Below, one piece after another: positions 2,934-12,807 of a stretch of DNA of 44,244 nt (positions are counted from its first letter, which is position 1; the number at the start of each line of letters is the position of its first letter). The position numbers were made by a program, and so were the translations under genes. Source of the DNA: an uncultured archaeon (lineage in GTDB: Archaea; Micrarchaeota; Micrarchaeia; CABMEP01); assembly GCA_902385155.1 (NCBI GenBank), contig CABMEP010000051.1, positions 1 through 44,244 of the forward strand, written 5' to 3'. A model generated the notes under the pieces. The model was not told the origin of the DNA and did no database searches. It was given only the letters and a program-made list of their open reading frames with translations.

Positions 2934-3266
2934 ATGGATACGATAATCATGAGATTCATCCTTCTAGGATTGAACGTGATAGTGCTGGTGCTGCTGGGCG
3001 CCTACCTGCTGGACTTCATGGGGATAAGCGCCCTCGGGATGAACACCCTGGGCGCGCTGTTCCTCGCGTCGGTGGCCGGGCTGCTGGTAGTTGACCAGAT
3101 GGTGGAGAAGCTGCAGATGACCAACCCATGGATGTATCTCGTTCCGGGAATCGTCGCAGTGGTCGCTCCGGTCATAATCGTGAGGCAGGTCTCTGTCATC
3201 ACGCTGCTCGGAGTGCTCTTCACCGTCCCGGGAATAGTGCTTTTCGTAAGGAAGACCATCAAATGA
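2934..3266 (+). CDS. small integral membrane protein
   Basis: 110 aa, almost entirely hydrophobic helices. A TTTAAAAA box lies at 2913-2920, so the true start may be ATG 2949 (MRFILLG). Confidence 0.5.
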   Translation: MDTIIMRFILLGLNVIVLVLLGAYLLDFMGISALGMNTLGALFLASVAGLLVVDQMVEKLQMTNPWMYLVPGIVAVVAPVIIVRQVSVITLLGVLFTVPGIVLFVRKTIK

Positions 3267-3267
3267 A

Positions 3268-6200
3268 GTGAACCAACACGCGTCGCCGGATAATGACGCG
3301 CTCGTTATGGTGCGGTATATGGAATCAGATCCCGAAGTGAAGATACTGGAGTTCTGGGAGAAGAACAAGATACAGCAGAAGGCCTACAAGATGAGAGCCA
3401 ACGGGCCGAAGTTCTACATGTGCGACGGACCGCCGTTCGCGACGGGCGGGATCCACGTGGGCACCGCCTGGAACAAGTCCCTCAAGGACGCGGTCTGCAA
3501 GTACAAGATGCTCCAGGGGCACAGCGTCCACATCAGGGCAGGATACGACACCCACGGCCTCCCGATAGAGACGCAGGTGGAGAAGGACCTCGGCGTGAAG
3601 GAGAAGAAGGACATCGAGAACAAGATCGGGATAGAGAAGTTCACCAAGCGCTGCAGGGAGCTCTGCGAGAAGTACATCAAGCTCATGAGCACGCAGTTCA
3701 TCCGCCTCGGGACGTGGATGGACTACGACGACCCGTACATCACTTACACCAACGACTTCATAGAGAGGTCCTGGGCCACGTTCAAGAAAGCCCACGAGAA
3801 AGGACTTCTCTACAACGACGTCTACGTCAACCCGCACTGCCCGAGATGCCAGACCACTCTCGCTAATTACGAATTGGAGTACCACGACATGGTGGACCCC
3901 GCGATATTCGTGAAGTTCAAGGTCGCGGACAAGGAGAAACTGTACCTCGTCGTCTGGACGACAACGCCATGGACGCTCGTCAGCAACGTGGCGGTCATGG
4001 CCCATCCGATCATGCGCTACGTGAAGGCGAAGGTCGGCGAGGAGGAATGGATATTCGCGAAGGAGCGCCTCGGCGCGGTACAGGACGCCGCGGGCGAGAG
4101 CCTAGTCATAGTCGAGGAATTCGCGGGCAAGGACCTCGCAAAGCACAAGTACCAGCACCCTCTCATGGAGGAGGTCAACCGCACGGCCCCGCAGACGGTC
4201 GTAATGTCCGACGAGTTCGTCACGGCGGAGGACGGAAGCGGACTCGTCCACTGCGCCCCGGGCCACGGCCCCGAGGACTACATCATAGGCAAGCGCTACG
4301 AGCTTGAGATATTCAACCCGGTGGCCCCGAATGGAAGGTATACGGAAGCGGCGGGCCAGTTCGCGGGAGAGAACGTGCTGGAAGTCAACGACAAGATCAT
4401 CAAGACACTGAAGGACAAGGGCCTCCTCATCAAGGCGGACAGGATAACACACAGCTATCCGGCGTGCTGGAGATGCAAGACAAAGCTGATCCATCTCTCA
4501 TCCAACCAGTGGTTCATCCGGATCACCAAGATCAAGGACAGGATGTCCTCCGAGGTAGCGAAGACCGTCTGGATACCGGACTTCGCCAACAAGTGGATGT
4601 CCAATTTCGTGGACAGCGCCAAGGACTGGTGCATATCCCGCCAGAGATACTGGGGGATCCCGCTGCCTATCTGGAAGTGCGAGAAGTGCGGCGAGCTCAA
4701 GGTCATAGGATCGGTGGAGGAGCTCGGCAAGAAGCTGCCGGACCTGCACAGGCCGCACATAGACGAGCTCACGTACGACTGCCCCAAGTGCCACGGCATA
4801 ATGAAGAGGGTGCCCGACGTCCTCGACGTCTGGTTCGACTCAGGCAACGCCGTCTGGGCAGGACTCAGGCCGGGCGAGGAGAAGCTCTACCCGACAGACA
4901 TGATCATAGAAGGAAAGGACCAGATCAGGGGATGGTTCTACTCGCTGCTCGGTTCGGGGGTGGTCCTGAACGACGAGATCCCCTACTCGTCGCTCCTCAT
5001 GCACGGCTATGTCGTTGACGAGAAGGGCATGGCGATGCACAAGTCCCTGGGTAATTTCGTGCCGTGGGAGGACGTGATCGCGAAGTATCCCGCCGACGCC
5101 ATCAGGCTGATGGCGCTCAGCAATGTCACCTGGGACGACCTCAGGTTCAACTGGAACGAGATGAACGAGGCCAAGAGCGAGCTCGTCACGGTCATCAACA
5201 TCGGCACCTACCTGGAGCGATTCTACGTTCCTGCCGCGAAGCAGGCGGAGTCGGTGGAGGACGAATGGCTCTCCTCCCGCCTCAACTCGCTGATAAAGAA
5301 CGCGACGGCGGACATGGACAAGGGAGAGACCTACGCCGCGCTCAGGAAGGTCAGGAAGTTCATAGTCGGCGACGTCAGCAGGTTCTACATGAAGCTCATC
5401 AAGAAGAGGACCGACATCAACGTCCTCCACGAGTCCGTGCTGAAGGCGCTCGTGCTCGCGTCGCCGTTCATACCGTTCACCACGGAAGGGCTCTACCGCA
5501 AAGTCTACGCCAAGGGCAAGGACATGCCGGAGAGCGTCTATCTCCACAGCTGGCCGAAGGCCGACGAGGGAGAGATAGACCTCCTGCTCGAGAAGCAGAT
5601 GAGCATGGCGCAGGAGATAGTCGACGCCAGCAACAGCGTCCGCGCCGAGAAGGCGGTGAAGCTCAGGTGGCCGCTCGAAGAGATAATCGTCGCCACGAAG
5701 ATGACGGAAGTGAAGGACGCGGTCCACAGGACGGACAACGTCATCAGGATGCTCGCCAACGTGAGGAAGGTGGTCACGGACTCGACGATCCAGATAGACC
5801 TCTCGGAGAAGGCGGCAAGCAAGCTCGGAGAGGATGTGGTCGCCAAGATAGACGCCGTGAGGAAGAAGAATGAGGCGGACTTCTTCAAGGGGGTCATCGT
5901 GATAGACGGCAAGGAGCACGATTACAGGGAATTCATAACGGTCGACAGGAAAGGATACTCGTGCAAGGCGATGCCATGGGGCGTCCTGCTGCTGAAGACG
6001 GAGATCAGCGAGGAGCTGAAGATGGAAGGCCTCCTCAGCGAGGTCCGCAGGCGCATACAGTCCATGAGGAAGGAGGCCGGCCTGGTGGAGAAGGACCAGA
6101 TCACAGTCCACATATCCGGAAGCAGGATCATCAAGGACATCGTGGCCAAGCACGGCGACGCCATAAAAGGCGAAGTCAACGCCAAGGAGATACTCACCGA

Positions 6201-6280: not shown

Positions 6281-6589
6281 ATGGCGTTCGTGCTCGTATA
6301 CATCACGCACAAGAACAAAGCTGAGGCCAGGAAAGTGGTCTCCCGCCTCCTGAAGAGAAGGCTGGTCGCCTGCGCCAACATATTCCCCATTGAAAGCCAC
6401 TACCGGTGGAAAGGCAGGATAGAACAGGCCAAGGAGATCGTAACGGTCCTCAAGACCAAAAAGGAGAATTGGAACAAAGTGAGGGCGGAAGTGGAGAGGA
6501 TCCATCCGTACGAAGTGCCCTGCATCATGAGACTGGATGCCGAGGCGAACCCATCCTACGAATCCTGGATTAGAAAAGAAACTAGATGA
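6281..6589 (+). CDS. cutA: divalent-cation tolerance protein CutA
   Basis: 102 aa. RLVACANIFPIESHYRWKGRIE...HPYEVPCI is the CutA1 signature. Confidence 0.9.
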   Translation: MAFVLVYITHKNKAEARKVVSRLLKRRLVACANIFPIESHYRWKGRIEQAKEIVTVLKTKKENWNKVRAEVERIHPYEVPCIMRLDAEANPSYESWIRKETR

Positions 6590-6603
6590 ATATAGTTAAC
6601 AAT

Positions 6604-7329
6604 TCAAAGTAGCGTATCTTTTTGTATTCTCATTACAAAATCATATCGCTGATTGCGTTTAGAATCAATTTGAATTTCGAAGGTATAATCTTTAATCGTC
6701 TTAGCGATTTCAGATATAGCTTGAGACGCGATTGATTGTGGTTTTTGTCCTCGGCTAAATACAATTACAGCATTAGGGAGAGTTATCAGTCTTATCTCTA
6801 GCGCTTTTGATACTTCTTTAATGGTTGATTCAGACTTAACAAAAATAACATACCGATCTATATCAGTGAGCACAGTTTGGACTCCGTTTTCTAATTCTTT
6901 CTCATTCGAAGTGGTTCCCAATAAAAGATTGATATATCGAGTAAATGTTCCAGTTAAAACTAATTCTGCAACATGAAGACCAGATTTACCGAATTCACTT
7001 AGGATTACTTGTTTGAGATGATCCTGTTTCTTTCTGTTTCCTCTCTCTTCCAATCTCATTAGTGCAAATCCCATCTCAATCTGAAGGCGAATATTTCGGT
7101 TCTTAATGTATTTACGGAATAGTTCGAATTCTGGTTTTTGTCTCTCACTTTTGACAACGTTTATGGTTTCTTGATCTCCAATAAAGGCTAATTCTCCATT
7201 TTGAAATCGTTTGATTAGGTCTTTTATCTGAGTTGAACTTAAGACAGCTTCAGTAACGCCTTTAGCTACTCCTTTAGCTGCACTTTCAACTGGATCAGGT
7301 GAAAACGAGCCTTCAGAGGACATCTCCAT
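6604..7329 (-). CDS. hypothetical protein (241 aa) in AT-rich island
   Basis: Long ORF in ~33% GC DNA, Lys/Glu/Ile-rich. Its start overlaps the upstream 80-aa ORF by 17 nt. No motif recognised. Confidence 0.6.
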   Translation of the reverse strand: MEMSSEGSFSPDPVESAAKGVAKGVTEAVLSSTQIKDLIKRFQNGELAFIGDQETINVVKSERQKPEFELFRKYIKNRNIRLQIEMGFALMRLEERGNRKKQDHLKQVILSEFGKSGLHVAELVLTGTFTRYINLLLGTTSNEKELENGVQTVLTDIDRYVIFVKSESTIKEVSKALEIRLITLPNAVIVFSRGQKPQSIASQAISEIAKTIKDYTFEIQIDSKRNQRYDFVMRIQKDTLL

Positions 7330-7555
7330 ACTCCTCTAAATAAGAAGCGATACTTAGTTCATTATCATCAAGAATTAGTGTGCTTCCAGGAAGAATAAGC
7401 ATGTTTGAAATTTTAACTTCTACGTTGGCATATTTGTCCTTAACTCTGTTACCTAATGAATCAACAACATATTCGCCGTGAACACCGTAGCCCAATTGCT
7501 TAAGTAGCTCTACTTTAACGGGCTTAGGCAGACTTTTAATAGATATTTTTTCCAT
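7313..7555 (-). CDS. hypothetical small protein (80 aa) in AT-rich island
   Basis: First ORF of the overlapping pair, with the same composition as its partner. No motif recognised. Confidence 0.5.
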   Translation of the reverse strand: MEKISIKSLPKPVKVELLKQLGYGVHGEYVVDSLGNRVKDKYANVEVKISNMLILPGSTLILDDNELSIASYLEEYGDVL

Positions 7556-7613
7556 GGCTGTCGCCTAGATAACCTTACAACTGCGCCTTCCTTTTAAAGA
7601 TATCGGTTAGCAA

Positions 7614-7793
7614 TTACATCGACTTGTACTTGCTTCTCTTGTCCAGGTTGCTCCAGCAGTCCTTGCAGATGACGAGATGCTTCGTCTTCTCCGGCTTCTT
7701 GGAGGACTTGGTGCAGTTGACGCAGACATTCCTGTCGCAGAAGATGTCCTTCTCTAAGAAGTGGACTTCCTTCTTGCATCGTTCGCACATCAT
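7614..7793 (-). CDS. 59-aa zinc-ribbon protein (below the ORF-track length cutoff)
   Basis: Hand translation gives MMCERCKKEVHFLEKDIFCDRNVCVNCTKSSKKPEKTKHLVICKDCWSNLDKRSKYKSM*. It has CxxC, CxxC and CxxC pairs, an ATG start and a TAA stop. Confidence 0.55.
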   Translation of the reverse strand: MMCERCKKEVHFLEKDIFCDRNVCVNCTKSSKKPEKTKHLVICKDCWSNLDKRSKYKSM

Positions 7794-7959: not shown

Positions 7960-8406
7960 ATGAAAGACGTATCAAATATCTCCAAGTCGTTCACCTGCGA
8001 GTGCGGAACGGTGAACAAGTTCGAGTTCGAGACTGATTTTGACGTGCATGACGTCACCATGGTGGTGCGCTGCCAGGAATGCAACCGGGAGAAGAATATC
8101 AGCATGCTCAGCTTCTTCAAGCGGAACGCCCCGGGAATGGACCAGCCGTTCAGCCCGCTCGCGAGCCCGGCCCAGCCCATGAGCCAGTCCATATTCAGCG
8201 ACGCGATCATACCGATGGGAGACATGATCGCGGGCATGGAACCGCAGCAGGAGCAGCAGGCTGCGCCGCAGGGAAGCGTCATAGACCTGCTCAGCCCACC
8301 GGTCGTGACGCAGCAGAAACCACAACAGGCCCGGGAATCCGACGAGGATGACGACCTGTCCTACGAGGAGAAGGAAGCGTTCTCCGATCTCTTCGGCAAG
8401 CTCTGA
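7960..8406 (+). CDS. zinc-ribbon protein with Q/P-rich linker and acidic C-terminus
   Basis: N-terminal CxC...CxxC (FTCECG...RCQECN) is followed by low-complexity PQQEQQAAPQ and the acidic tail ESDEDDDLSYEEKEAF. Confidence 0.6.
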   Translation: MKDVSNISKSFTCECGTVNKFEFETDFDVHDVTMVVRCQECNREKNISMLSFFKRNAPGMDQPFSPLASPAQPMSQSIFSDAIIPMGDMIAGMEPQQEQQAAPQGSVIDLLSPPVVTQQKPQQARESDEDDDLSYEEKEAFSDLFGKL

Positions 8407-8437
8407 TCCGCTCTCGTCCGCTTTTTGATCAAAAGGG

Positions 8438-9259
8438 CTAGATACGCTGCCAGACGCCGAACATCTGATAGTCGCAGCATGCCTGCCTGTCTAATCTGCG
8501 TCCGAGGCCGGCGCAGCCCGCCCGCCTGAACATCGAGCCGTTTTCTATCTCCCAGGTCCCGATATCGAAATGTGTCGGGTGGATCAGCAGGAACCCGCCC
8601 GGCGCCAGCACCCTGTGTATCTCCCTTAACGCGTCCGAGTCCCTTATTCCGTCGAGAGGGATCATCGCCAGGGCGTATGAGGAGACCACGGCGTCGAAGA
8701 ACCCGTCAGCGAATGGAAGCGAGTACCCATTGCCCTCTCCGCTCGGGACAACGAGGTTCCTCACCCCGAAGAACGTGCCGATGGATACCGCGAACTCGTC
8801 CGTGTCGGCGCCCCAGGAATCGAGCCCCAGGTCTTTCCTCATCCAGGCCGCAAGCCAGCCGACATTGCAGCAGAAGTCGAGAACCTTGCCCACTTTGCTG
8901 CCCAGAGGGCAACGGTGGAACCTGGCGATCCCGTCGAGCACGGGCGACTGGGTGTCCAAGAGCTCTCCGTGGGACAGCGCCGTGACCCCGCCGAACGCGG
9001 CCTCCCAGCAGCCGACGGGCCTCGCGACATCGAGGAAGGGCAGCCTGCGCCCTATGCTCTCCTCGAACGCGATCAGCTCTCCGATATCGGCGCAGCCGTA
9101 CTGCTCCCTGCTGAAGAAGAACGCTAGATCGGAGAACAGCTTGCGCCTCGCCTTCTCGTCAGCGATGTCGTTGATGCTCTCGAGCTTGGGCAACAGGCTG
9201 CGGGCGAGCCGCCTCTGCTCGCTCACGCCCGACATGGCGCGACCGCCCATCTTTTCCAT
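8438..9259 (-). CDS. class I SAM-dependent methyltransferase
   Basis: Motif I-like VLDFCCNVGW and post-motif FFDAVVSSYALAMIP...LAPGGFLLI. The start is set at ATG 9259 (MEKMGG) because a TATA box lies 22-29 nt upstream. The track extension to 9397 is unlikely. Confidence 0.8.
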   Translation of the reverse strand: MEKMGGRAMSGVSEQRRLARSLLPKLESINDIADEKARRKLFSDLAFFFSREQYGCADIGELIAFEESIGRRLPFLDVARPVGCWEAAFGGVTALSHGELLDTQSPVLDGIARFHRCPLGSKVGKVLDFCCNVGWLAAWMRKDLGLDSWGADTDEFAVSIGTFFGVRNLVVPSGEGNGYSLPFADGFFDAVVSSYALAMIPLDGIRDSDALREIHRVLAPGGFLLIHPTHFDIGTWEIENGSMFRRAGCAGLGRRLDRQACCDYQMFGVWQRI

Positions 9260-9280
9260 GTGATAGTGGGGCGTTTGGCG

Positions 9281-9288
9281 TATATAAC
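9281..9288 (-). promoter_or_regulatory. TATA box for the methyltransferase gene
   Basis: The minus strand reads GTTATATA, 22-29 nt upstream of ATG 9259. Confidence 0.5.
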
Positions 9289-9376
9289 CCTGCCGAGAAA
9301 GGAGGAAAACGGGACTCGTGCCCCTAGCCCGGGCCGATGCGAGCCAGGTCGGGAACGGGAGCCGAGGTCGCTCCAA

Positions 9377-9384
9377 TTTTAAAT
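9377..9384 (+). promoter_or_regulatory. TATA box for alaS
   Basis: TTTTAAAT begins 29 nt upstream of ATG 9406, a leaderless-type spacing. Confidence 0.55.
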
Positions 9385-9405
9385 CTTTAACTCCCATCTC
9401 ATACC

Positions 9406-11285: not shown

Positions 11286-11358
11286 GGCCCTATAGTCGAA
11301 TGGTTAAGACGCCACTCTCACACAGTGGAGACTGGGAGTTCGATCCTCCCTGGGGCCA
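11286..11358 (+). tRNA. tRNA-Val(CAC)
   Basis: Hand-folded cloverleaf. The acceptor GGCCCUA/UGGGGCC has 7 bp, the anticodon stem is CCACU/AGUGG, the loop is CUCACAC and the T arm is GGGAG-UUCGAUC-CUCCC. The discriminator is A and no CCA is encoded. Confidence 0.9.
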
Positions 11359-11394
11359 CTCATCCTCCTCGAGGATAACAAGCAAGGTGCAAAC

Positions 11395-11767: not shown

Positions 11768-11873
11768 GCCCCGATCGTCTAGTCCGGTCAAGGACGTAGC
11801 CCTCTCAGAAATCTCCTCGGAAGGGGAGGTCCGGAGAAAGGCTAAAACCCGGGTTCAAATCCCGGTCGGAGCA
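11768..11873 (+). tRNA. tRNA-Glu(CUC) with 31-nt intron at 37/38
   Basis: The D arm is GUCU-AGUCCGGUCA-GGAC and the anticodon stem is UAGCC/GGCUA. The loop CUCUCA|intron|A gives anticodon CUC. The T arm is CCGGG-UUCAAAU-CCCGG. The acceptor GCCCCGA/UCGGAGC has one C3.A70 mismatch. Confidence 0.85.
11808..11838 (+). other. tRNA-Glu intron (canonical position)
   Basis: The intron is GAAAUCUCCUCGGAAGGGGAGGUCCGGAGAA, with an internal hairpin CUCCUC/GGGGAG. Its 3' GGAGA is complementary to the anticodon region. Confidence 0.75.
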
Positions 11874-12692
11874 TTTAAGTGGCTTAGCGAAGCGATCACC
11901 CGAAATTTACTGTCTCTTTCTCTTCTTATATCAACAATCGTTGAATTAAACATGCTCGAGCAAACGCCTGAGATGGCTGAGGTCTGCGGTGCATTCATAG
12001 GCGATGGCTGGATAGAATCCAGACAGACATCAATGTACATAACGGGCAATCTAACCGAAGATAGACGGTACTATGATGGACACCTCTCCAAAATATTTTC
12101 GCACAATATAGGCGAAGTAACCCCGAAGGAGTTCCCATACTGGCATGTGTATGGGATAGGTTTCCATAAAAAGAATGTCATTAGGCAATTATCAGAATTT
12201 GGCTTTGTTTCTGGAAGAAAGAATAGAATAACAAGAATACCTGAATGGATAATGAACTCAAAAGATGAACGTATCCAATATTCAGCGCTAAGAGGCATTT
12301 TCGACACGGACGGTTCGTTTTATTGTAAACGAAATTATAGTAAAACCAGCAACACCTGGCGTTTAAGATATCATTGGCAACCGAGAATTCGCATAGGCGT
12401 CGTTTCACCTGGGCTTATTGAAGATATCAAAACAATCGTAGATCGATTTGGAATCAGCTACTCTAATCCGAGTCCACGACCGCCTAGAAAGAGCAATGAA
12501 CAGCCCGCTTATCTGTTTGAGATAAACTCGGTTGAAAATATCAAACGATGGTTCAACGAGATAAAACCAGCTAATTCTAGACAAACCACCAGATATGGGG
12601 TATGGAGAAAGTTTGGGTTCTTACCGCCAAATACAACCCTTGAAGAAAGGAATAAGATAATAGCTGATGAAATAGATGTATACAGTTATTAC
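11874..12692. mobile_element. AT-rich insertion carrying a LAGLIDADG homing endonuclease gene
   Basis: GC is 18/60 at 12181-12240. It lies exactly between two complete tRNA genes. TCTCTTTCT occurs at 11913-11921 and 12800-12808, and a degenerate tRNA-Leu 5'-like stretch lies at 11881-11903. Confidence 0.45.
11925..11932 (+). promoter_or_regulatory. TATA-like box for the endonuclease gene
   Basis: CTTATATC is centred ~24 nt upstream of ATG 11952. Confidence 0.45.
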
Positions 12693-12764
12693 GCAGGGGT
12701 ATCGAAGCGGTCAAACGAGGCAGTCGTTAAAAAAACGGCCTTTACTCAAGATCTGCTCCCTTAG
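11952..12764 (+). CDS. LAGLIDADG-family homing endonuclease (two-motif, monomeric type)
   Basis: The two motifs are VCGAFIGDGW and LRGIFDTDGSFY, about 100 aa apart. The last ~24 codons are read from the tRNA-Leu gene sequence (12693-12764). Confidence 0.8.
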   Translation: MLEQTPEMAEVCGAFIGDGWIESRQTSMYITGNLTEDRRYYDGHLSKIFSHNIGEVTPKEFPYWHVYGIGFHKKNVIRQLSEFGFVSGRKNRITRIPEWIMNSKDERIQYSALRGIFDTDGSFYCKRNYSKTSNTWRLRYHWQPRIRIGVVSPGLIEDIKTIVDRFGISYSNPSPRPPRKSNEQPAYLFEINSVENIKRWFNEIKPANSRQTTRYGVWRKFGFLPPNTTLEERNKIIADEIDVYSYYAGVSKRSNEAVVKKTAFTQDLLP

Positions 12765-12796
12765 TGGGTTCGAGAGTTCGAATCTCTCCCCCTGCA
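12693..12796 (+). tRNA. tRNA-Leu(CAA), type II, with 20-nt intron in the anticodon stem (30/31)
   Basis: The acceptor is GCAGGGG/CCCCUGC and the D arm is UCG-...GG...-CGA. The anticodon stem GCAG[intron]A pairs with UCUGC, and the loop is CUCAAGA. The long variable arm is UCCCUUAGUGGGUUC, the T arm is GAGAG-UUCGAAU-CUCUC and the discriminator is A. Confidence 0.8.
12724..12743 (+). other. non-canonical tRNA-Leu intron
   Basis: The intron is UCGUUAAAAAAACGGCCUUU. Removing it is the only way to restore a 5-bp anticodon stem and a 7-nt loop with U33. Confidence 0.7.
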
Positions 12797-12807
12797 CTCT
12801 CTCTTTC

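Follow-up and report, generated by a model that had tools for sequence, protein, structure and literature searches.

An inserted gene pair of a Micrarchaeota genome belongs to a widespread, undescribed archaeal family and is tentatively read as a toxin-antitoxin-like conflict cassette

Type II toxin-antitoxin (TA) systems such as VapBC, RelBE, HicAB and HEPN-MNT are bicistronic operons of overlapping ORFs with their own promoter, which encode a small acidic and a larger basic protein and in which one partner occasionally decays. They are distributed patchily over chromosomes, integrated elements and proviruses and tend to be AT-richer than their hosts. Independently promoted and compositionally distinct genes are also found between the conserved head genes of viruses, at positions that vary in related viruses, in the form of the morons of phages and archaeal viruses and of two-gene abortive-infection (Abi) cassettes such as AbiE. 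Proteins of the Alba/Sac10b superfamily (Alba, SpoVS, Rpp20/Pop7, Rpp25/Pop6) are typically non-enzymatic nucleic-acid binders (PMC11621453). The defence and addiction systems of the archaea, especially of the DPANN lineages, remain poorly charted because most detection tools have been trained on bacterial systems. The gene pair described here shares features with all three groups and differs from each of them.

The window analysed, 44,244 nucleotides of contig CABMEP010000051.1, comes from a Micrarchaeota genome, in which two convergent host genes, cutA and a zinc-ribbon gene of 59 aa, flank an inserted AT-rich island of 1024 bp (6590..7613) that was delimited from blastn breakpoints, empty-site sequences and GC content. 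An initial annotation of the sequence had described a fall in GC content and a compositionally foreign island, and both were borne out, all of its counts being reproduced (18/60 at 6601-6660 and 23/60 at 7021-7080, against 37/60 at 5041-5100). The GC content of the island is 0.359, against a mean of 0.583 (sd 0.03) in the other 1024-nt windows of the contig, and with a z of -7.4 it is the lowest window of the whole contig. Codon usage, proposed in that annotation as a check, is strongly foreign as well, with GC3 values of 0.30 and 0.26 in the small and the large gene of the island against 0.87 in ileS, 0.72 in cutA, 0.87 in the zinc-ribbon gene and 0.81 in a 148-aa gene nearby. Three metagenome contigs (L027, L029 and L034), with IleS identities of 81-91%, have empty sites in which about 70 bp separate cutA from the zinc-ribbon gene; blastn homology to them ends at window positions 6579-6582 and restarts at 7613-7616. 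Since the relatives have only this short spacer in its place, the island is a true insertion relative to them, and the gene pair is missing in 6/6 closely related contigs that span the site. The junctions coincide with gene ends, and on either side of the island the contig is collinear with the relatives. The island is thus compositionally foreign, horizontally acquired and recent, and it is near certain that its gene pair is a mobile cassette.

Exactly two ORFs are contained in the island, both on the minus strand, and the lengths and the overlap given for them in the initial annotation were reproduced from the ORF list. The small gene (7313..7555; 80 aa) lies upstream of the large gene (6604..7329; 241 aa) and overlaps it by 17 nt (7313-7329). 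A GAGGAG motif resembling a Shine-Dalgarno sequence (7332..7337, minus strand) can be read inside the last codons of the small gene (Glu-Glu), 7 nt upstream of the second ATG of the large gene, and in the family alignment of the large protein a Met stands at position 3 in 76/117 members and at position 1 in 25/117. The placement of the motif and the frequency of Met at position 3 suggest that the real start of the large gene is this second ATG (7323), which would give a protein of 239 aa and an overlap of 11 nt; the motif also suggests translational coupling of the two genes. A TATA-like box, CTTTAAAAGG (7590..7599, minus strand), was read about 40 nt ahead of the ATG of the small gene and would be the cassette's own promoter. 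In the other loci, too, AT-rich TATA-like boxes precede the pair by similar distances, and no conserved operator or inverted repeat was found upstream of the pair across the loci compared. The same gene order and an overlap of 11-17 nt were observed in every locus examined, so that the pair shows the adjacent, co-directional and overlapping genes of a type II TA operon.

A 10-nt imperfect direct repeat at the island edges had also been put forward, with a single GTTARCAATT expected at empty sites. The two copies exist on the plus strand, GTTAACAATT at 6595..6604, overlapping the stop codon of the large gene, and GTTAGCAATT at 7606..7615, overlapping that of the zinc-ribbon gene. Empty sites were indeed found, but GTTARCAATT is absent from those of L027, L029 and L034, and a 9/10 match between the two 50-nt edge zones arose in 110/2000 shuffles (5.5%); a target-site duplication was therefore rejected and the repeat is a chance match. 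According to the ORF list and the tRNA scan, the island neither contains nor adjoins an integrase or a tRNA; Rfam and tRNA scans of it and of the cassette flanks returned nothing meaningful, and neither terminal repeats nor a target duplication were found at the island. An integrase-borne island would have the gene of an integrase or recombinase, a direct repeat as attachment site with one copy at empty sites and, often, a tRNA target, and these features are missing here.

Neither protein of the window matches a model of Pfam, NCBIfam, PADLOC or PHROGs, in agreement with the lack of a recognisable motif reported from the sequence, and the suggested profile and structure searches returned no housekeeping family, only an Alba/SpoVS-like fold for the large protein. 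When all the small and large family members were searched, only scattered sub-threshold matches were obtained and assignment to a known family was rejected. The whole large-protein family matched no toxin, antitoxin, Abi or defence model of PADLOC and PHROGs, neither partner showed homology to a known toxin or antitoxin family, and no defence-system model of PADLOC-DB 2.0 matched the pair. Searches with tblastn of annotated phage and plasmid collections gave no match to the pair, and the literature on Alba-domain toxins and antitoxins and on DPANN TA systems yielded nothing that describes this gene-pair family.

The small protein of the window is acidic (pI 5.0; family median 4.4), and its predicted structure places a small beta unit between an N-terminal and a C-terminal helix (AF2 pLDDT 83). 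A Foldseek comparison of this model with the PDB gave no match better than E = 0.7, a PDB sequence-profile search gave nothing, and none of the DNA-binding folds of antitoxins (RHH, HTH, AbrB, Phd) was found in the protein. A relationship to YqaI was rejected, as 8/38 members match it with a best E of 0.006, under the curated cut-off. The homologues of the small protein form 37 clusters with 48-73% identity and share the invariant polar residues D40, Y42, D63, N65, S68 and Y72, which are many for a protein of its size. Conservation is higher in the small than in the large protein in 55/55 comparisons, and part of this conservation may come from dual coding with the ribosome-binding site and start of the large gene.

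The large protein of the window is basic (pI 9.1; family median 8.9). The N-terminus of its AF2 model (pLDDT 87) is a disordered but conserved peptide, D-P-x-E-S-A-A-K-G; helices make up the next domain (about residues 32-155), and the C-terminal one (about residues 157-236; pLDDT >90) is predicted to have the beta-alpha-beta-alpha-beta-beta (IF3-C-like) fold of the Alba/Sac10b superfamily. Foldseek comparison with the PDB retrieved Alba, SpoVS and Pop6/7 chains with probabilities of 0.97-1.0 and target TM values of 0.45-0.81. The predicted Alba assignment holds at the fold level only, as Pfam Alba (PF01918) matches only 2/117 members of the family, with E of at least 0.015, and no sequence-profile similarity of the family to it is apparent; hhalign of the family profile with Sso10b Alba gave a probability of 0.2%, that is, no similarity, and a PDB sequence-profile search returned nothing, including no Alba entry. 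Further differences from the superfamily are the fusion of this domain of about 80 residues to an N-terminal part of about 150 residues (peptide plus helical domain), the obligatory small partner encoded with it, and the mobility and patchiness of the pair, which is not a core component of chromatin or RNase P. The loop that corresponds to the Lys16/17 loop of Alba holds a conserved Asp (D168) in the large-protein family. Against BFVD, Foldseek ranked an uncharacterised Siphoviridae protein of 346 aa first (E 6e-4) and a phage SpoVS-like protein next, and these matches give no functional information. No catalytic motif was identified from column conservation; the near-invariant His119 is replaced by Asn in P0149 and the near-invariant Arg91 by Met in the window copy. 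Fic/Doc-like and HEPN-like readings of the conserved G-L-H-I-A-Q-F-V-Q-N-G were rejected, its spacing being unlike the HxFx(D/E)GNGR motif of Fic/Doc and the Rx4-6H motif of HEPN proteins, and no such matches were obtained.

The island pair is no orphan and represents a widespread, undescribed archaeal two-gene family. Its small proteins measure 77-86 aa and its large proteins 223-244 aa; the latter comprise 472 representatives at 50% identity (at least 161 clusters by indexed search), every named member is archaeal and many are from DPANN genomes. The two proteins strictly co-occur, always travel together and co-diverge, their divergences being correlated with r = 0.78 over 55 locus pairs. 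A fused ORF of 318 aa (P0089) is a single case, and a Diapherotrites copy has an intact small gene and a disrupted large gene.

The pair was found in 12 different, unrelated neighbourhoods with no recurrent neighbour and has a lower GC content than the flanking DNA in 10/10 loci tested, which together with the empty sites amounts to the patchy, horizontally mobile distribution of type II TA systems. Integrases lie near the pair in L011 and L044. Further genes at L011 encode a type I restriction-modification system and a mad3-like ATPase, and L013 has a mad3/mad8-like ATPase; matches to defence models among the neighbours (mad3, mad8, a methyltransferase) are confined to these two loci, so that recognisable defence genes occur in only 2/12 contexts. 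Homology between the L011 and L013 cassettes stops exactly at the stop of the large gene, and no conserved target sequence was detected among the contexts examined. Two related archaeal head-tailed proviruses (L035 and L039) carry the pair in the head module, between portal and capsid genes and at different positions. Identity between the two is 37% for the large and 67% for the small protein, against 74-82% for the flanking virus proteins; the different positions and the far greater divergence of the pair point to independent acquisition by the two proviruses. These two family members sit as viral morons do, whereas the copy in the window is chromosomal and the window and most other contexts have no viral gene adjacent to the pair. 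In IMG/VR the pair is confined to 2 of 2.9 million contigs.

A new toxin-antitoxin-like or conflict cassette is the best explanation for the pair, although it is held tentatively and at rather less than an even chance. One transcript would start from the TATA box of the cassette, the small acidic 80-aa protein would be translated first and the basic protein of about 240 aa would follow in fixed proportion through translational coupling. The two proteins may form a complex, in which the large one would bind RNA or DNA via its predicted Alba-like C-terminal domain as the putative growth-arresting or effector component and would be neutralised by its small acidic partner. The whole would constitute an addiction or conflict module, type II TA-like or abortive-infection-like, that stabilises mobile elements or excludes competitors. 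The Diapherotrites copy, with its disrupted large gene beside an intact small one, shows the order of decay to be expected were the large protein the toxic partner. This locus, the opposite charges of the two proteins, their co-divergence and the one fused ORF are indirect hints that one partner may be toxic and be neutralised by the other through direct binding. An acidic small upstream protein and a basic larger downstream protein with a predicted Alba/SpoVS-like nucleic-acid-binding fold are TA-like traits. The contexts and the mobility thus fit the TA, Abi or defence-type module suggested in the initial annotation, while homology to a known family of these kinds is lacking. Unlike type II systems, the pair resembles no known toxin or antitoxin in sequence or fold, its putative toxin of about 230 aa carries a predicted Alba-like domain, and its small partner, which is better conserved than the large one, is without a known DNA-binding fold.

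The absence of toxin, antitoxin, Abi or defence similarity in the models searched is counted against the TA-like reading, as are the small protein without a known DNA-binding fold or PDB match and its conservation, the opposite of the usual fast-evolving antitoxin. The lack of a catalytic motif, with His119 and Arg91 each replaced in one copy, the Alba assignment at fold level only and the scarcity of defence genes in the contexts are counted likewise. Extended to the whole family, the TA-like reading would describe an undescribed archaea-wide conflict system (TA/Abi), with an effector of Alba fold plus new helical domain and a new small acidic controller, exchanged among DPANN, Bathyarchaeia, Nitrososphaerota and Marsarchaeota genomes and their head-tailed viruses, a proposal that is perhaps correct but should be held with reserve. 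If the TA or Abi role is true, the pair would bring a new effector architecture and a new neutraliser fold and could serve as a marker for gene flow among DPANN archaea, their hosts and viruses. About 470 clusters at 50% identity, conflict-cassette-like and common to cells and archaeal viruses, are without a Pfam, NCBIfam, PADLOC or PHROG model. Even if non-toxic, the island offers a clean, datable 1-kb insertion in a streamlined Micrarchaeota genome, with empty sites for comparison.

The location between portal and capsid genes in two proviruses, a probable promoter of its own and an AT-rich composition as in morons, the missing catalytic motif and the typically non-enzymatic nature of Alba-superfamily proteins would all suit a non-toxic accessory cassette of mobile elements. 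The proteins of such a moron would bind nucleic acid as regulators or help in packaging, for instance as a repressor, a translational regulator or a head protein associated with the genome, to the benefit of viruses and integrated elements, and its chromosomal copies would be leftovers or domesticated. This is rather unlikely, since the pair is mostly found in cellular genomes, without a viral gene beside it in most contexts, is rare in IMG/VR, varies in position among related viruses and has diverged far more than the structural genes of these viruses; from AbiE it further differs in matching neither AbiE nor any other PADLOC model. The roles of the two proteins could also be reversed, the small acidic protein acting as effector on a conserved host target and the large Alba-fold protein as neutraliser and autoregulator. 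The gene order would then be toxin first, as in hicAB, higBA and mqsRA, the higher conservation of the small protein and its invariant polar residues would find an explanation, and the only plausible DNA- or RNA-binding domain would lie, as often, on the antitoxin. However, a toxic small protein should kill a cell in which its gene is intact and the large one broken, as in Diapherotrites. The small protein is acidic and matches neither HicA, HigB nor another toxin fold, and its overlap with the ribosome-binding site and start of the large gene may account for part of its conservation; a reversed polarity is accordingly graded as improbable.

An ordinary housekeeping pair of DPANN archaea, for chromatin or RNA processing, would be compatible with the predicted Alba-like fold and with the many family members from DPANN genomes, but the absence of the pair from all six related contigs, its patchy distribution, variable context and strongly foreign codon usage argue against it. 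An assembly artefact is hard to reconcile with junctions exactly at gene ends and flanks collinear with relatives, which would be unexpected in a chimeric assembly, and both of these readings are very improbable. A slender chance is given to a self-mobile selfish element comparable to a free-standing homing endonuclease, in which one of the two proteins would cut or recombine DNA and insert the cassette between genes. Signatures of a nuclease, recombinase or transposase are absent from both proteins, and the element would also have to do without terminal repeats, a target duplication or a conserved target sequence. It would nevertheless fit the clean indel of about 1 kb at an intergenic site without an integrase near it in the window, the differing insertion points in related viruses and the exact end of homology between the L011 and L013 cassettes. 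Elements of this type are active in this genome, as a second AT-rich island of the same contig contains a LAGLIDADG gene that is free-standing.

The AT-rich island between cutA and the gene for a 59-aa zinc-ribbon protein is a self-contained bicistronic cassette, which was gained horizontally and whose products are inherited as a unit. The low GC content described in the initial annotation was borne out and all three of its hand counts were reproduced exactly. Positions 6590-7613, the lowest-GC kilobase of the whole contig, have a GC content of 0.359; the mean of the other 1024-nt windows of the contig is 0.583 (sd 0.03; z = -7.4). The contrast with the host is larger at the third codon positions than in overall GC, the GC3 of the small and large island genes being 0.30 and 0.26 and that of the flanking ileS, cutA, zinc-ribbon and 148-aa genes 0.87, 0.72, 0.87 and 0.81, respectively. 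A weak match to the Rfam snR78 C/D-box snoRNA model across the end of cutA and the island edge (6579-6654, plus strand) is sub-threshold (28 bits, with a gathering cut-off of 48; E 0.09) and is probably noise from AT-rich sequence.

The two overlapping ORFs claimed for the island are indeed present, both on the minus strand: a small gene (7313..7555; 80 aa) and a large gene (6604..7329; 241 aa) with a 17-nt overlap. A GAGGAG motif at 7332-7337, which codes for Glu-Glu in the C-terminal L-E-E-Y-G of the small protein, lies 7 nt upstream of the second ATG (7323) of the large gene. In the alignment of the large family, position 3 is Met in 76 of the 117 members, whereas only 25 have Met at position 1. 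Because this spacing and the Met positions favour the second ATG, the true overlap is probably 11 nt rather than 17 nt, and translation of the two genes appears to be coupled. The order small to large with an overlap of 11 or 17 nt holds in every locus read, and a small-gene tail also precedes the Marsarchaeota homologue of the large protein. A TATA-like box, CTTTAAAAGG (reverse complement of 7590-7599), precedes the small gene by ~40 nt, and AT-rich boxes of this kind are found ahead of the pair in other genomes as well.

IleS of the window shares 66-67% identity with Candidatus Micrarchaeum and Micrarchaeia MAGs, on account of which the contig was assigned to the Micrarchaeota, and a metagenome scan provided nearer relatives with IleS identities of 81-91%. 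In the closely related metagenome contigs L027, L029 and L034, cutA is followed by ~70 bp and then by the convergent 59-aa zinc-ribbon gene. Nucleotide homology of the relatives to the window ends at 6579-6582 and restarts at 7613-7616, which, together with the ~70-bp spacer, indicates that the island is an insertion in place of the short spacer; the window offers a clean example of a filled versus an empty site for the cassette. The imperfect direct repeat GTTARCAATT, proposed at the island edges (6595-6604 and 7606-7615), proved to be a chance match: the motif is present at none of the empty sites of the relatives, the very outcome that the initial annotation had named as evidence of chance, and the two 50-nt edge zones shared a 9/10 match in 110 of 2000 shuffles. 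No integrase or tRNA was found at the island.

The empty-site spacer carries a conserved hairpin, GGACGC-N11-GCGTCC, just 3' of the zinc-ribbon stop in all the relatives (L034 ~575-600, L026 ~3145-3170, L027 ~3270-3295, L029 ~6575-6600), with arms that vary in L027 and L028. A role as bidirectional terminator or small RNA element is conceivable for the hairpin, which is gone from the window, where the insertion took its place. The gene cutA (6281-6589) is itself variable, as ileS runs straight to the zinc-ribbon gene without it in contigs L026, L028 and L031 (IleS identity 85-91%); in more distant Micrarchaeia uvdE, fragmented in L016, occupies this slot. With cutA present in some contigs and absent from others, the ileS/zinc-ribbon junction is therefore a site at which genes are repeatedly gained and lost.

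Neither island protein matched Pfam, NCBIfam, PADLOC or PHROGs. Homologues of the small protein form 37 clusters (48-73% identity) from Diapherotrites, Nanoarchaeota and unnamed metagenome contigs. The large protein has one indexed homologue (Marsarchaeota, 39% identity), at least 161 clusters with a profile made from small-gene neighbours and 472 representatives at 50% identity in an exhaustive HMM search. Among the matches listed, members of the large family are ~220-245 aa long, barring shorter apparent fragments, and the named ones are all archaeal (Bathyarchaeia, Nitrososphaerota, Aenigmarchaeota, Marsarchaeota or 'archaeon'). Nor did Pfam, PHROGs or PADLOC yield consistent matches when all family members were scanned, and a literature search on DPANN and Alba-domain toxin-antitoxin (TA) themes found no paper that describes the family. 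Judged from these searches, the pair represents a large, archaea-wide, unannotated family, and is rated as a mobile two-gene accessory module built from new protein families.

The divergences of the two proteins are correlated (r = 0.78, 55 locus pairs), the small protein always being the more conserved partner (mean identity 60% versus 37%). A 318-aa ORF, P0089, joins the small and large proteins head to tail and could reflect a sequencing indel, its source contig being just 1.3 kb. The window copy groups in a divergent subfamily with family members P0002, P0100, P0104 and P0149 and differs from the consensus at 13 of the 37 best-conserved positions of the family (e.g. R91M, Q125L, A197P); it is intact, though activity is not to be assumed. 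In a Diapherotrites genome (L002/L003, 5230-5700), an intact small gene accompanies a large gene split into 50-aa and 74-aa ORFs in different frames, a probable pseudogene seen in an NCBI and a Logan assembly, possibly of one and the same sample.

The large protein was modelled confidently by AF2 (pLDDT 87) and has three parts: a disordered yet highly conserved N-terminal peptide (D-P-x-E-S-A-A-K-G-x-x-K-G), an all-helical part (~residues 32-155) holding the best motif of the family, G-L-H-I-A-Q-F-V-Q-N-G, and a C-terminal beta-alpha-beta-alpha-beta-beta unit (residues 157-236). In Foldseek searches against the PDB, the last unit matched dozens of Alba, SpoVS and Pop6/Pop7/Rpp20/25 chains (probability 0.97-1.0, target TM up to 0.81, E ~1e-2), SpoVS and Alba being accepted as a single superfamily (PMC11621453). 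Since the link to Alba is undetectable by sequence comparison, the modelled unit is called an Alba-like fold and not a proven family member. In the model of the small protein (pLDDT 83), which has no match in the PDB, two helices flank a small beta unit. The family median pI is 8.9 (basic) for the large and 4.4 (acidic) for the small protein.

The pair was found in twelve distinct neighbourhoods, and an all-against-all comparison of the flanking ORFs revealed no recurrent neighbour. Besides the ileS-cutA/zinc-ribbon site of the window, these include a pyruvate:ferredoxin oxidoreductase operon (L001), the gap separating LemA from an M48 peptidase (L041), a site next to RmuC and a tyrosine integrase (L044) and a site upstream of a mad3/mad8-like ATPase (L013). 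In L011 the pair is flanked by a type I restriction-modification system and, across from it, by an integrase, a methyltransferase fragment and a mad3-like ATPase. An odd location for an accessory cassette is that of a family member directly upstream of gvpN, where it heads the gas-vesicle operon of an uncultured archaeon (L046/L047, 7766-8705). Two related head-tailed proviruses, L035 and L039 (L036 being the same element as the latter), carry the pair between their portal and capsid genes, each on a different side of a conserved 108-aa gene. The large and small proteins of the two proviruses share only 37% and 67% identity, respectively, while the flanking portal, 391-417-aa, cement and capsid proteins are 74-82% identical; the different position and low identity point to independent acquisition, as with a viral moron. 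The near-identical cassettes of L011 and L013 (85%) lie in different genomic contexts and share DNA homology from ~400 bp upstream of the small gene to the exact stop codon of the large gene. This upstream stretch (L011 4601-5000, L013 4647-5000; 78-82% identity) looks non-coding and had no tRNA or Rfam match; the window has only 58 bp there. In each of the 10 loci tested, the AT content of the pair exceeded that of its flanks. Only two IMG/VR contigs carried the pair, as did none of the annotated phage and plasmid records. It is very probably a mobile accessory cassette; a housekeeping gene pair or an assembly artefact is hardly credible.

The function of the cassette remains hypothetical. 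The reading tentatively favoured is a TA or conflict mechanism, in which transcription from its own TATA box and coupled translation would yield a fixed ratio of the products, the acidic small and basic large proteins would form a complex, and the large protein might bind RNA or DNA through its Alba-like domain, acting as the effector of a type II TA-like or abortive-infection-like module with the small protein as neutraliser. It is favoured because of the operon format, charge pattern and promiscuous mobility, the integrase, restriction-modification and provirus contexts, and the locus with a broken large and an intact small gene. The cassette would work most like type II TA or abortive-infection cassettes or viral morons. 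Against the favoured TA or conflict reading, it has no homology to any known or catalogued TA or defence family, the small protein lacks a DNA-binding fold, no catalytic motif was found and only 2 of the 12 contexts are recognisably defence-related. The small protein is more conserved than is usual for an antitoxin; a TA module with its polarity reversed is nevertheless improbable, the large gene being the broken one in the Diapherotrites locus. A non-toxic nucleic-acid-binding accessory of mobile elements, compatible with the Alba-like fold and the provirus copies, is somewhat unlikely, and a self-mobile homing-type element, compatible with the clean insertion, is quite improbable.

Other variable elements occur on the contig. 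A second AT-rich island (11850-12800; GC 0.38-0.44 versus 0.58) is another mobile element, with a free-standing LAGLIDADG-type homing-endonuclease-like gene (11952..12764, plus strand, 270 aa; Pfam LAGLIDADG_3, E 7e-9) a few hundred bases downstream of tRNA-Val(CAC) (11286-11359). A class I SAM-methyltransferase gene of host-like GC (8438-9397, minus strand, 319 aa; Methyltransf_11, E 5e-12) is missing from the related contigs L029 and L031, the homology of L029 skipping from 8404 to 9368, and is a second presence/absence polymorphism near the island.
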